Of a DNA stretch of 64,000 nt, positions 8,996-27,697 are shown piece by piece. A program made the position numbers and the translations under genes. Under the pieces are notes generated by a model. That model was given only the letters and a program-made list of their open reading frames with translations. It had not been told where the DNA came from and did no database searches. Numbering within the stretch: the stretch's first letter is position 1; each line of letters begins with the position of its first letter. The stretch comes from Gemmatimonadota bacterium (lineage in GTDB: Bacteria > Gemmatimonadota > Gemmatimonadetes > Gemmatimonadales > GWC2-71-9), in the NCBI GenBank assembly GCA_039588295.1, contig JBDHAB010000015.1, forward strand, positions 1 through 64,000. The letters are read 5' to 3'.

Positions 8996-9055
8996 CGTAA
9001 TCGCCGATCCGCGCTCGGGTAGTATCTTATCTACAATGAATTGATTGGAGCGACC

Positions 9056-9418
9056 ATGGCGTCACGGACCTCGAAGGTCAAGAAAGCTGTCAGGCGCGGC
9101 GTGAGCAAAGCCAAGCGCGCGGCCGGCAAGCGCGGGAAACGCACCAAGAGCGCGGCACGGAAAGCCGGCAAGGCGGTGCGCCGCAGGGCGAAGGCCGCCG
9201 GTAAGGGCCTCAAGAAACGGGTGAAGCAGGTCCGCAGGAAGCGCGCAAAGCGCAGAGTCGGAAAGGCCTTGACGGCCGCAGGGGCTGCAGCTGCGGCTGC
9301 TGGTGTGGCGGTTGCCGCGGGGCTCACGGCAGCACGAAAGAAGAAGCCAGCGCGTAAGAAGAAGAGCACGGCCAGAAAGAAGCGCGCGACAAAGAAGAAA
9401 GCGACGAAGCGCAAGTAG
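9056..9418 (+). CDS. Lys/Arg/Ala-rich histone H1-like basic protein with a central hydrophobic Ala stretch
   Basis: GGAG SD before ATG 9056; MASRTSKVKKAVRRG...KKKATKRK; no acidic residues; followed by a hairpin. Confidence 0.75.
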   Translation: MASRTSKVKKAVRRGVSKAKRAAGKRGKRTKSAARKAGKAVRRRAKAAGKGLKKRVKQVRRKRAKRRVGKALTAAGAAAAAAGVAVAAGLTAARKKKPARKKKSTARKKRATKKKATKRK

Positions 9419-11704: not shown

Positions 11705-11944
11705 GATCGCCCCTTCTCCCTCCAGATCTTTCATGAAACGGTCGGGATGGAATCGTCCCTCGAAGGCAAACACCTGCGCCAGCTGACCCACGAAGCGAAC
11801 ACCGGCCTAAGCTATCTGTCGCGGGATTGGGGTGCCAGCGAGCTAAGGCTAGCTGCGGCTGCCCGATCTACCCAGTTCGGACCCCCGGGTGTACCTTAGC
11901 GGTGAACAGCGCCGACCGGGCGCGGTCGACGTTTCGTAACCAGG

Positions 11945-12081
11945 TGTCCGTTGCCGGAACGCGAAGGCCCGGCAGCCCAGCGCGGGGGCGATGACCGCGG
12001 CAGCTGATGATCGTTCGGTAGGCACGGGTCCCCCGGACTCCGACGGCATCAACTCAAAGCATCACTCGAGGAGTAGGGGAA
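11945..12081 (+). ncRNA. Putative structured cis-regulatory 5' leader of csp (copy 1)
   Basis: Shares sequence blocks and three stems with the leader of the second csp (27428-27564), including an identical 15-mer and compensatory base pairs. Confidence 0.7.
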
Positions 12082-12291
12082 ATGCGTACCACCGGAACAG
12101 TGAAATGGTTCAACGACAAGAAGGGGTTCGGATTCATCACCCGTGAGGATGGAGAGAAGGACTGTTTCGTCCATTTCTCTGCGATTCAGGGTGAGGGATT
12201 CAAGTCGCTGCAAGAGGGTCAGCGTGTCGAGTTCGACGTCGTAGCCGGCGACAAAGGCCCCTCGGCGCAGAACGTCGTTGTGCTATCCTGA
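12082..12291 (+). CDS. cspA: Cold-shock protein (CSD)
   Basis: GTVKWFN, RNP1 KGFGFI, RNP2 [13 protein letters not shown]. Confidence 0.97.
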
Positions 12292-12315: not shown

Positions 12316-12353
12316 ACGAAGCCACCTCGGAATCGGGGTGGCTTCGTTGTTTT
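12316..12353 (+). terminator. Intrinsic terminator of csp
   Basis: ACGAAGCCACCTCG-GAAT-CGGGGTGGCTTCGT followed by TGTTTT. Confidence 0.85.
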
Positions 12354-23927: not shown

Positions 23928-25568
23928 ATGCCCCGACCTCACTTCATCAAGCGGCGCGACTCGCGATCCACCGGTGGCGGCATCACCGGCGGGAAGGTCA
24001 CGCTCCCGCCAGATCTGATCGAGAAGGCGGGCAAGCGCCTGGGATTGGCCGCGCTCGTGTACGCGGTGGCATATCTGCTGGCGTATGGCACGAGCCGAGT
24101 CACACAGAATTTCGCCGACATTTGGGGGGGTGGCTTTCCAAACCTCCCCGATTTCTGCGCGGCCGGGTTCATCGCCCTCGCCATCGGGATGTTCTTTCTC
24201 GCTCGCAGCCAGTTGGTGGCCGGCACGCAGCTGCTGGACCTCGGCCTCGTGTTCGAGGTGGTCGGAGCCATCGGGATCGACTTCTTCTTCGTCTGGGGAC
24301 TCTGGCCCACGGGCTTACAGATGACAGGGATCTCGTGGGTTTGTGTGTGGATCGTCTTCTTCCCGCTCATCGTACCGAGCACTCCGGGCAAGACGCTGGT
24401 GGTCTCGCTTCTGGCAGCCTCCGCGACACCGGTTCTGTATCGCATTGGTGTCGCGCAGGGCGGCGATCCGCTGGGTGCGACGGCGCTGTCATACATCATC
24501 CCGAACTACATCTGCGCTGGGATCGCCGTTGTTGGCGCCCGCGTTGTGTACCGACTCGGATCCGACATCAGCAGGGCCCGTCGCATGGGATCGTACCAGC
24601 TCGTCGAAAAGCTGGGAGAAGGCGGCATGGGTGAGGTGTGGAAGGCCGAGCACCGCATGTTGGCGCGCCCGGCCGCGATCAAGCTCGTTCGCGGAAGCCC
24701 GGCAGGTACCGGCCCGGGTCGCACAACGGGCAGCGACGTTCATCGGTTCGAGCGAGAGGTGCAGGCGACGGCGCAGCTGCGCTCGCCGCACACGGTGGAG
24801 GTCTACGACTACGGGCTCACCGAGGACCGCACTTTCTACTACGTAATGGAGTTGCTGGACGGGCTGAGTTTGGAAGAGTTGGTCACGCAGTACGGACCGA
24901 CCCCGGCGGCGCGGGTCGTGCACATCATTCGGCAGGCGTGCCACTCACTGGCGGAGGCACATGCGCGAGGGCTCGTGCATCGCGACATCAAGCCTGCGAA
25001 CATCTTCCTCTGCCGCTACGGACTCGAATACGATTTCGTGAAGGTGCTTGACTTCGGGCTCGTGAAGCCGGCTGGCGTGGACGCGCCCGGCGATGTGAAG
25101 CTCACCGACGTCGGCTCGTTTGCGGGGACGCCGGCCTACGTCTCGCCCGAAGCGGCCATGGGTGAGCGGGACAAGGTGGACATGGGGAGCGACATCTACT
25201 CGCTCGGTTGCGTGGCGTACTGGCTGCTCACCGGGCGTACGGTGTTCGCCGGGTCAACACCGATGCAGGTGCTGTTCCAGCACGTGCATCAGGAACCGGC
25301 TCCCCCGTCCAGCTGCACCGAACTCAAGATCCCGAAGGAACTCGATGCGCTGGTGCTCGAGTGCCTCAGGAAAGAGAAGGAAGCGCGCCCTCGATCGGTG
25401 GAGCAGCTCGGTGCTCGCCTCGAGGCACTTCCGTTCGACGATCCGTGGACGGTAGAACGCTCACGACAGTGGTGGGATCGTCACCGACCGGCGCGGCACG
25501 AGGCACAGGTTGCCTGGTCGGTGGCGGATACTGCAGCCGGCGCGGCTCAGCCGATCGCCAAGCTCTAG
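23928..25568 (+). CDS. Membrane-embedded Ser/Thr kinase with an N-terminal multi-TM sensor region
   Basis: About six hydrophobic segments, then LGEGGMGEV, AAIK, HRDIKPAN, DFG, GTPAYVSPE. Confidence 0.92.
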   Translation: MPRPHFIKRRDSRSTGGGITGGKVTLPPDLIEKAGKRLGLAALVYAVAYLLAYGTSRVTQNFADIWGGGFPNLPDFCAAGFIALAIGMFFLARSQLVAGTQLLDLGLVFEVVGAIGIDFFFVWGLWPTGLQMTGISWVCVWIVFFPLIVPSTPGKTLVVSLLAASATPVLYRIGVAQGGDPLGATALSYIIPNYICAGIAVVGARVVYRLGSDISRARRMGSYQLVEKLGEGGMGEVWKAEHRMLARPAAIKLVRGSPAGTGPGRTTGSDVHRFEREVQATAQLRSPHTVEVYDYGLTEDRTFYYVMELLDGLSLEELVTQYGPTPAARVVHIIRQACHSLAEAHARGLVHRDIKPANIFLCRYGLEYDFVKVLDFGLVKPAGVDAPGDVKLTDVGSFAGTPAYVSPEAAMGERDKVDMGSDIYSLGCVAYWLLTGRTVFAGSTPMQVLFQHVHQEPAPPSSCTELKIPKELDALVLECLRKEKEARPRSVEQLGARLEALPFDDPWTVERSRQWWDRHRPARHEAQVAWSVADTAAGAAQPIAKL

Positions 25569-26734
25569 CGTCTGGAGGCTGTCGGTCGTTCTTTCGACTG
25601 CGTGAGGATCTGCGAGACCAGTTCGTCGTTGTTCTTGGTCCGCCGCATCAGGTCGAGCAGCTCCTTCATCGCATCGGCGGCCGGCAAGTTCGCGAGCCAG
25701 TGGCGGAGAGAGCGCGACGCTTCGAGGGCCTCCGGAGAGAGTAGCCGTTCTTCTCGTCGGGTGGCACTCGCGTTGAGGTCGATGGCGGGGTAGATGCGAC
25801 GCTCGGCCAGCTCGCGGCTCAGCACGAGCTCGCTGTTCCCGGTCCCCTTGAACTCCTCAAAGATCACCTGATCCATGCGCGAGCCCGTATCGATCAGGGC
25901 GGTCCCGATGATGGTGAGCGAGCCGCCGCTCTGCTGAGGGTCGATGTTGCGAGCGCTGCCCAGAAATCGCTTGGGCCGCTCCATCGCGGTGGCGTCGAGA
26001 CCGCCTGACAGCGTCCGCCCACTACTCTTCTCGACCCGGTTGTGGGCACGGGCCAGCCGCGTGATCGAATCCAGGATGATGACGACATCGTCACCCTGCT
26101 CGACGCGGCGGCGCGCCCGTTCCACCGTGAGGTCGGCGACGGCCACGTGTCGGGTTGCCGGGAAGTCAAACGTGGATGCAATGACCTCACCGAATCCGCA
26201 GGCCTCCATCTCGGTGACTTCCTCGGGTCGTTCGTCCACCAGGAGGATGAGCAACAACGCCTCCGGGTAGTTCTTCACGATTCCCTCGGCGAGGGCCTGG
26301 AGCACCATCGTCTTGCCCGCCTTTGCCGGCGCGACGATCATGGCACGCTGCCCTAGCCCGACCGGGCAAATCAAGTCGATCACGCGATTGGTGTAATCCA
26401 GGCCGCCGAGGCGTGTGAGGTCACAGTCGAGGGTGAGCGGCTTGTTCGGGTGAATAGCCGTGAGTTCGTTGAACCGGGGCCGGGTGTTGCCCCTGATGGC
26501 AGGCCGGCCGTTGACGGCCTCCAGCCGGGTCAACGAACGGCTCTTGCCGCGCCCAGATGGCTCGCCAACTTGGCCGGCGAGTTCGTCGCCGGTTCGCAGC
26601 CCGAATTGCTGCACGATCTTCCGGCCGACGTGAATGTCGCCGCGGGACGGCAGATATGAGTGCTCCGGCCGCCGCAGGAATGCAGCGCCCTTCGCAGTCA
26701 CGTCCAATACGCCGAGAACTGGTGCGTCGGTCAC
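25565..26734 (-). CDS. rho: Transcription termination factor Rho, short divergent form
   Basis: GLGQR, Walker A APAKAGKT, DERPEE, LDSITRLARAHN, SGRTLSGG, IFEEFKGTGNSE, SATRREE. It begins directly at the OB fold (GVLDV). Confidence 0.93.
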   Translation of the reverse strand: MTDAPVLGVLDVTAKGAAFLRRPEHSYLPSRGDIHVGRKIVQQFGLRTGDELAGQVGEPSGRGKSRSLTRLEAVNGRPAIRGNTRPRFNELTAIHPNKPLTLDCDLTRLGGLDYTNRVIDLICPVGLGQRAMIVAPAKAGKTMVLQALAEGIVKNYPEALLLILLVDERPEEVTEMEACGFGEVIASTFDFPATRHVAVADLTVERARRRVEQGDDVVIILDSITRLARAHNRVEKSSGRTLSGGLDATAMERPKRFLGSARNIDPQQSGGSLTIIGTALIDTGSRMDQVIFEEFKGTGNSELVLSRELAERRIYPAIDLNASATRREERLLSPEALEASRSLRHWLANLPAADAMKELLDLMRRTKNNDELVSQILTQSKERPTASRR

Positions 26735-26886
26735 GAGCGTGGGTGGTAGTAGGTACTGGTTATGAGAGTACGGCCGTCTAGGGTCGTCTCTGGTATCTGA
26801 TTAGTCGGGGGGTCTACGGCCCGTCTATCGGGCTTCTCCCTCTGAACGTAGTGCTGTCGGGACGACGCGCAAGGTGCGTCCGCCGA

Positions 26887-27108
26887 TCAGTTCTTGTGGC
26901 GAAACGTAATGCGGCCGCGAGTCAGATCGTACGGTGACACCTCGACGGTCACACGATCACCCGCGAGGACCCGGATGCGGTTGCGCCGCATCCGCCCGGC
27001 AATGGTGGAAAGGACCGTATGTCCGTTCTCTAATAGTACACGGAAGGTGGCGTTCGGCAGTACCTCGGTCACCGTTCCCTGGAGTTCGATTGCGTCTTTC
27101 TTTGTCAT
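26887..27108 (-). CDS. infA: Translation initiation factor IF-1
   Basis: [30 protein letters not shown]...[36 protein letters not shown] at 27108. Confidence 0.97.
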
Positions 27109-27154
27109 GCGCCCTGCGGCTGTACTTCCTGCTTCAAGATGGTGGATGATAGCT

Positions 27155-27190
27155 CGGGGGGCCGCCGTTGACCACCCAGGCGGCCCCCCG
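27155..27190 (-). other. Strong GC hairpin between csp and infA, without a U-tract
   Basis: CGGGGGGCCGCC-N12-GGCGGCCCCCCG, perfect 12-bp stem. Confidence 0.6.
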
Positions 27191-27214
27191 TGCGCGATCA
27201 GCGAGTGGCTCGCC

Positions 27215-27427
27215 TCACTCGGCGAGCTTCGACACATTCTCGGCGGCCGGACCCTTGTCGCCCGATACGAGATCGAACTCGACCCGTTCGCCTTCCTTGA
27301 GTGACCTGAACCCAGAGCCCTGGATCGCGGAATAGTGGACGAAGCAATCCTTCTCGCCCGCATCCGGGGTAATGAATCCATAGCCCTTGCCATCGTTGAA
27401 CCACTTCACCAATCCAGTCGTACGCAT
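27215..27427 (-). CDS. cspA: Cold-shock protein (CSD), second paralog
   Basis: [19 protein letters not shown]...[10 protein letters not shown]...KGPAAENV; true start is ATG 27427. Confidence 0.97.
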
Positions 27428-27564
27428 CGCCCTACACCCTCTTTGCGTTTGCGTGGTCGGGGTCCGGTCTTCCGGCACTGTCCGACTACTGGTCCTACGC
27501 GGCTCGAGCCCCCGCGCTGGGCCGCCCCGGGGTGAGCCCTCGCGCACCGGTGGGGCGACGGACA
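27428..27564 (-). ncRNA. Putative structured cis-regulatory 5' leader of csp (copy 2)
   Basis: Homologous to 11945-12081, with covarying stem pairs. Confidence 0.7.
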
Positions 27565-27668: not shown

Positions 27669-27697
27669 AAAGTATCCCCTGCGCGACTCGGTGTCAA
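27669..27697 (-). promoter_or_regulatory. Sigma70-type promoter upstream of csp-infA-rho
   Basis: Minus strand TTGACA-N17-TACTTT. Confidence 0.7.

Follow-up and report, generated by a model that had tools for sequence, protein, structure and literature searches.

A modular leader of cold-shock protein genes in Gemmatimonadota with a covarying pseudoknot and a predicted two-fold stem, a candidate translational switch held open by cold

Introduction

In Escherichia coli, the cold-shock protein (Csp) CspA is able to bring the mRNA that encodes it into the closed conformation. According to the accessible portions of PMC7873864, PMC4166951 and PMC9947658, the cspA mRNA (RF01766) possesses a long 5′ UTR and two mutually exclusive folds between UTR and coding region, of which the closed one hides the Shine-Dalgarno sequence (SD) and the AUG, and the open one is similar to an intermediate of folding. 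Short fragments of cspA adopt a structure like that of the cold form (PMC9947658, in part). The E. coli genes cspB, cspG and cspI form a long stem between UTR and coding sequence (CDS) at 37 °C, which hides the ribosome-binding site (RBS) as well as the initiation codon, and a shorter stem made of UTR alone at 10 °C, which frees them, with covariation, as described in the accessible part of PMC13271884. In the operator of phage T4 gene 32, a compact pseudoknot is located 5′ of a region with little structure and of the RBS (PMC535899, in part).

The leader of csp genes reported here resembles all three systems in this architecture. It differs from the leader of cspA in its helices, in possessing an upstream pseudoknot and an internal terminator-like hairpin, and in belonging to another phylum. 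Neither a pseudoknot nor a leader terminator is described for cspB, cspG and cspI in the accessible part of PMC13271884, whereas this leader has a pseudoknot and a terminator-like hairpin. The effect of cold has been shown for those three genes and is proposed here, and the likeness is one of architecture, not of compared sequences. In the accessible part of PMC535899, the gene 32 operator has a spacer of UUAAA repeats and no two-state stem is described, whereas here the linker is A/C-rich and a stem, P3, lies in between. This comparison concerns layout, and protein binding on this leader is putative. The gene 32 operator is the best structural analogy for the pseudoknot.

By analogy, the leader likely works like the enterobacterial csp thermometers, yet it falls outside RF01766. 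The search of the whole window against Rfam, proposed in the earlier note on this DNA as the check for an existing family, gave no gathering match. The cspA thermoregulator RF01766 scored 74.8 bits in copy 1 and 10.9 bits in copy 2 (threshold 78), with alignments that lie, by eye, in the coding region and the 3′ terminator, skip the UTR core and break many UTR pairs. No paper describing the leader was found in the literature outside subscription journals. The accessible main texts of PMC5737381 and PMC11109978 (whose supplements might list one) contain no csp or Gemmatimonad motif, and the same applies to the main text of bioRxiv 10.64898/2026.09.15.751765 and to one supplement of PMC8632094, as far as accessible.

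Organisation of the two leader copies

The window is the whole stretch of 64,000 nucleotides that was analysed, from a Gemmatimonadota genome named G000 below; L-numbers denote individual csp leaders of the set. As the earlier note had described, the window harbours two leaders, at 11945-12081 (+) and 27428-27564 (-), each located 5′ of a csp gene (PF00313). Their features are as follows, ON and OFF being the proposed open and closed folds.

Copy 1
11892..11897 (+), -10 hexamer TACCTT, predicted from sequence; relatives possess TAGCTT or TACCTT at the same place, by eye
11910..11939 (+), putative degenerate terminator-like hairpin with a weak U tail
11950..11976 (+), accessory stem P1, not constant among leaders, with the last two pairs in competition with S1
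11975..11999 (+), H-type pseudoknot, with S1 at 11975-11978/11986-11989 and S2 at 11981-11985/11995-11999
12006..12050 (+), P3 (ON stem), with the 5′ strand at 12014-12027, the 3′ strand at 12033-12044, the anti-SD ACUCC at 12037-12041, and a distal GAUG/CAUC at 12006-12009/12047-12050
12051..12081 (+), A/C-rich linker and SD (GGAGU, 12070-12074)
12082..12291 (+), csp gene 1, 69 aa; codons 2-5 (12085-12096) are the partner of the P3 5′ strand in the OFF fold
12316..12347 (+), terminator-like hairpin 3′ of csp gene 1

Copy 2
27669..27697 (-), predicted sigma70-type promoter TTGACA-17-TACTTT, read from the sequence and under the scanner threshold
27610-27582 (-), terminator-like hairpin, followed by a U tract at 27580-27571 (-), within the predicted 5′ UTR
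27521..27559 (-), accessory stem P1
27497..27522 (-), H-type pseudoknot, with S1 at 27522-27519/27511-27508 and S2 at 27517-27512/27502-27497
27456..27492 (-), P3 (ON stem), whose 5′ strand is the partner of codons 2-5 in the OFF fold
27428..27455 (-), A/C-rich linker and SD-like GAGGGU (27441-27436)
27215..27427 (-), csp gene 2, 70 aa
26887..27108 (-), infA (IF-1), directly 3′ of csp gene 2; then a rho-like gene (26734-25565)

Both copies possess TGTCC, the helix CGCGG/CCGCG, P3, the A/C-rich linker and the SD, and the three compensatory pairs between copy 1 and copy 2 that the earlier note had recognised in P1 were confirmed. An identical 15-mer is shared by both leaders and has these two copies only in the 4.5-Mb genome. 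The element extends past 11945-12081: upstream lie a terminator-like hairpin and a promoter-like site, and at the other end the OFF helix extends into the coding region; this leader-codon helix and the hairpin were absent from the earlier note. A consensus scanner found no promoter for copy 1. Copy 2 has a strong hairpin; that of copy 1 is degenerate and fails the terminator filter, which the other four csp leaders of G000 pass. Linkers consist of 79% A+C over 142 leaders.

Csp gene 2, infA and the rho-like gene likely form one operon under the copy 2 leader, with presumed co-transcription. The window also encodes, at 9041-9418 (+), a Lys/Arg/Ala-rich ORF of 125 aa that is histone-like by composition.

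Distribution of the leader

G000 possesses five csp genes, and the core leader was present on all five. From 41 related genomes, 115 out of 146 csp matches were taken, with the weakest matches and one unpublished genome omitted, and P3 was found in 58 of these 115 csp leaders. A covariance model built from 55 of the 58 matched in G000, at E<=1, exactly the five csp leaders and nothing else. Across the phylum, the model matched in at least 49 of 111 genomes (one unpublished), belonging to four of twelve families; since 32 candidates were scored per genome, genomes without a match are not proven to be leader-free. A csp gene was present at 62/62 fetched model-match loci (61/61 without the locus of the unpublished genome).

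The search with a P3-only pattern in 10 of the 64 parts of GTDB revealed 120 loci, 72 of them directly 5′ of csp. Sixty-nine out of the 73 Gemmatimonadota-labelled loci are immediately 5′ of csp; of the remaining four, two run off their contigs at the start codon and two are without a csp gene. The other 47 records include three csp-linked loci. A match to P3 was also found in a named Gemmatimonas record (L183). Among the relatives of a Krumholzibacteriia-labelled genome, matches were found in 4/31, every one beside csp, and therefore the element likely reaches a second phylum. An Acidobacteriota-labelled record was considered as a range extension and rejected; its relatives gave 1/31, which is the record itself, and it is thus not counted as wider range.

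The csp gene is often followed by infA or rpsU, as in the window at 25565-27427 (-), in G000 contig C6 at 175358-175845 (+), and at L016, L017, L023, L025, L123, L139, L295, L296 and L300. In G000, one csp gene is followed by infA and the rho-like gene (in the window) and another by rpsU, and these pairs recur in relatives. Such neighbourhoods look like a small gene set for translation and cold.

Other csp leaders are built differently. L002, L003, L005 and L032 are short leaders of the same genus, about 70 nt before the csp start and without any module, which adjoin, by eye, the same divergent metallophosphoesterase as copy 1; the element therefore seems to have been lost or gained at one locus. 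L096, L097, L099, L100, L102, L103, L105 and L109 possess a different conserved leader of about 60 nt with two nested helices, located 5′ of a MSRITGRV-type csp paralogue in one family.

An H-type pseudoknot in the leader

The helix called P2 in the earlier note corresponds to stem S2 of an H-type pseudoknot, in the order GCCC, 1-2 nt, S2a and GGGC, then a loop that varies (4-7 nt in most cases) and S2b. The stems S1 and S2 are interleaved, L1 has 0-2 nt, L2 has 0-1 nt, L3 has about 3 nt or more, and both stems covary. The pseudoknot with the GGGC of the P2 loop, suggested in the earlier note, exists, but its partner is the GCCC right before P2 and not the 5′ GUCC. This GCCC overlaps the last two pairs of P1, a variable accessory stem that usually ends 0-2 nt before S1. 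The 5′ GUCC was rejected as a pseudoknot partner at the level of the family: TGTCC, taken before as the shared start, occurs in 8/142 leaders and is no family feature. Neither is the CGCGARGGC of the P1 region, which is present in 2/142 leaders, the window copies alone.

Among 226 unique leaders, 166 possess P3 and 142 a clear S2. In alignment A2, whose members were selected by P3 alone, a blind mutual-information scan placed its three highest-ranking pairs in S2. Changes on both sides were found in 6/6 pairs of S2 and 2/4 pairs of S1. S1 is short; at least 3 bp were formed in 129/142 leaders, compared with 8-36 when partners were shifted, and 13/142 failed this test. Counting S1 at a fixed offset gives too low a number because L1 varies. 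Close relatives show clean swaps in S1, such as GCCG/CGGC in L217 beside GCCC/GGGC in L209 and L210, GCCA/UGGC in L160 beside GCCG/CGGC in L047, and GCGC/GCGC in L039. Compensations in separate lineages comprise L217 versus L209/L210; L047/L185/L219 and L160; L039; L158; L163; and the L027/L234 group. For the inner S1 pair, scored on 102/148 rows, the tree-based null gave 7/2000.

A first free descriptor of the pseudoknot also scored many unrelated hairpins, and therefore anchored and held-out tests were used. The held-out set comprised 69 leaders picked by P3 alone (72 minus 3 identical to training leaders). With a sequence-free descriptor, the pseudoknot was detected in 59/69 of them, compared with 5/46 non-csp pattern loci and 5-13/69 shuffled sequences; 10/69 have no pseudoknot. 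Folding z-scores of single copies (0.03 and -1.53) are no better than shuffles, and the evidence is thus comparative.

P3 and the rival leader-codon fold

Codons 2-5 are the complement of the P3 5′ strand, and the SD is the complement of ACUCC, which is contained in the P3 3′ strand. Over 166 leaders, matched pairing was stronger than permuted pairing both with the SD (-11.2 vs -10.3 kcal/mol) and with codons 2-5 (-15.2 vs -13.7 kcal/mol), differences that kinship inflates.

Anchoring was possible in 148 leaders, and in these the synonymous sites were analysed. The base that precedes GURCGG forms a Watson-Crick pair with the codon-3 wobble base in 79/148 leaders (45 expected), including 43 G-C and 32 C-G pairs, and the R base of GURCGG pairs with the codon-2 wobble base in 114/148 (91 expected). 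Control wobble positions of the same 148 leaders showed no pairing excess. Tree nulls, under a simple substitution model and on coarse trees built from later codons (about 175 coding bases), gave 0/2000 for the codon-3 pair and 1/2000 for the codon-2 pair, compared with 198/500 and 222/500 for the controls. The codon-3 signal is present in held-out rows (45/66, 26 expected), where the codon-2 signal alone is weak (54 vs 49 of 66). In agreement with the fold, CGT is the first Arg codon in 119/154 cases, compared with 32/191 for later Arg codons.

The anti-SD helix covaries poorly: out of 20 ACCCC leaders, six have the matching GGGU and 12 keep GGAG. The pairs of P3 itself change on both sides in 2/10 cases, and matched strands pair no better than permuted ones; this scant covariation is partly due to the choice of members by P3 sequence.

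When the coding start is included, OFF is the minimum-energy fold in 124/148 leaders, and in RNA ending at the AUG, P3 is the minimum-energy fold in 110/148. At equilibrium, cooling enlarges the gap toward the closed fold (median -10.6 to -15.0 kcal/mol) with no shift to ON at 10 °C, and a cold effect would therefore be kinetic. In both window copies, ON and OFF are within about 2 kcal/mol of each other, and the minimum at 37 °C keeps P3, being slightly lower. Copy 2 has an A-G mismatch at the base facing the codon-3 wobble.

Similar to csp thermometers, the leader sits in a csp 5′ UTR (with the transcription start predicted) and has two predicted, exclusive folds, one of which hides the SD and AUG by covarying pairing between UTR and CDS. 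The phylum survey, the covariation with tree nulls and the lack of an Rfam family support the view, already taken in the earlier note, of a lineage-restricted, covarying cis-regulatory RNA.

In one family, L018, L019, L067 and L074 lack P3 and retain the other two modules, terminator and pseudoknot. The last part of the first hairpin in these leaders could pair with codon 2 and the start codon, which might stand in for the OFF pairing.

Upstream hairpin, promoter and module sets

A hairpin with U tract was detected in 141/165 P3 leaders in the sense direction, compared with 16 antisense and 30 shuffled, at a median of 140 nt before the AUG, and in 24/58 leaders without P3. A promoter-like TTG..TAnnnT was found upstream of the hairpin in 80/133 leaders (median 52 nt) and downstream in one, and thus the hairpin is likely inside the 5′ UTR. 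In 133 leaders, the search for an antiterminator helix found none; the upstream 40 nt paired with the 5′ arm at -9.2 matched, -9.3 permuted and -9.9 shuffled. Of the features of a terminator/antiterminator attenuator, the leader has the G+C hairpin and U tract (weak in copy 1), but no competing antiterminator was found in these 133 leaders.

Modules were counted in 223 leaders, a set in which the motif is enriched: the full set of three was found in 105, terminator and switch in 32, pseudoknot and switch in 24, terminator and pseudoknot in 12, single modules in 19, and none in 31. In G000, a profile built from 42 sequences of the terminator module had low sensitivity, matching two csp leaders and, weakly, one other place.

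The sole infA of G000 follows csp, and its stand-alone rpsU has no terminator-like module in front. In the rpsU-csp operon at L029, a terminator-like module is located, by eye, 5′ of rpsU, and a hairpin very similar to it lies directly before the csp gene at L054. L175, L181, L199, L227 and L240 are minimal leaders, in which P3 closely follows the terminator U tract, without P1 or pseudoknot.

Proposed mechanism

The location of the leader, the pseudoknot, the leader-codon helix and the hairpin are demonstrated by comparison between leaders. We consider it reasonably probable that this modular csp 5′ leader, with its covarying pseudoknot and two-fold stem, is a kinetic translational switch held ON by cold. 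Transcription is predicted to start about 45 nt before the terminator-like hairpin, which likely limits read-through; relief of this hairpin by Csp antitermination is a guess. The H-type pseudoknot of 4+5/6 bp, for which covariation was found, would fold next; it is compatible with both states, and its likely role in this model is to receive a protein or to insulate the folding of its neighbours. P3 is predicted to form first, during transcription, leaving the linker, SD and AUG open (ON). After synthesis of codons 2-5, these could pair with the 5′ strand of P3, and ACUCC, thereby released, could pair with the SD. A single long hairpin would then enclose the start site (OFF), which is usually the state of lower predicted energy. 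Both the order of folding and the energies are model predictions.

Temperature as the trigger is suggested by gene context and by analogy with E. coli cspA. At warm temperatures, the relaxation of ON to OFF is likely fast. Cold would prolong the ON intermediate, so that ribosomes load and Csp is made, together with IF-1 or S21 where their genes follow.

Alternative explanations

The two-state anatomy is consistent with a thermoswitch or with Csp autoregulation, both named in the earlier note. That the switch is thrown mainly by Csp protein and not by temperature is possible, though on balance unlikely, and would be compatible with a cold-held kinetic switch, not exclusive of it. Csp would bind at the pseudoknot and at the A/C-rich linker, in the manner of T4 gp32 at its pseudoknot operator, and block the start site or catalyse refolding from ON to OFF; it may also melt the upstream terminator. 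The gene 32 operator has the same layout, in which a pseudoknot and then an unstructured stretch precede the RBS, and its gene likewise encodes a protein that binds single-stranded nucleic acid (PMC535899, accessible part). A pseudoknot-like element is kept by 17/60 P3-less leaders, several with it directly before the linker and SD, but in most leaders P3 intervenes between pseudoknot and RBS. The lack of a cold shift to ON in equilibrium folding also favours a role of the protein, as does the assistance that Csp chaperones give to the lpxP switch (PMC13271884, accessible part). However, E. coli CspA stimulates, and does not repress, the translation of closed cspA mRNA in the cold (PMC9947658, accessible part), and therefore the sign of any Csp effect here is uncertain.

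We regard as tentative, and as slightly less likely still, a three-layer autoregulatory leader, in which Csp would land on the pseudoknot and govern both the terminator read-through and the ON/OFF fold. To our knowledge, there is no report of structure-specific pseudoknot recognition among bacterial Csp chaperones.

It is improbable that the leader senses no signal and that the OFF fold acts as a timer closing untranslated mRNA for decay, with the pseudoknot and hairpins setting a fixed stability or dosage per paralogue. Such a role would fit modules that are optional and occur in differing combinations, and the presence of the leader on all five G000 paralogues, given that in E. coli only some csp genes are cold-induced (PMC7858274, accessible part). 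However, the selection at synonymous sites that keeps a second, exclusive fold is what switches show. RNase J (TIGR00649) was not found in the whole G000 genome, rated 96% complete, which makes a block of a 5′ exonuclease less likely.

An orphan riboswitch, one of the options in the earlier note, in which the pseudoknot would be the aptamer and bind an ion or small molecule, is very improbable because the pseudoknot loops are variable (L1 is A, G, C or U, L3 differs in length and sequence, and no invariant unpaired bases are available for a ligand pocket) and the pseudoknot can be lost while P3 stays; it also takes part in neither of the P3 folds and is located downstream of the terminator-like hairpin, and model matches were found beside csp genes only, although small H-type pseudoknots are the aptamers of the preQ1 and SAM-II riboswitches and the S2 core CG-Y-G-R is strongly kept (partly forced by anchoring).

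Implications

A kinetic switch held ON by cold would mean that an abundant and little-studied phylum has independently arrived at control of cold shock by RNA. It would be compact (about 90 nt), with a second fold that is readable in synonymous codon choice, a rare kind of evolutionary evidence for an alternative structure between UTR and CDS. Natural leaders with differing sets of terminator, pseudoknot and switch let each part be tested. The pseudoknot raises the question of whether Csp chaperones can read folded RNA. If the three-layer reading were true, the supply of Csp, IF-1, S21 and Rho would be coupled to cold across much of the phylum.
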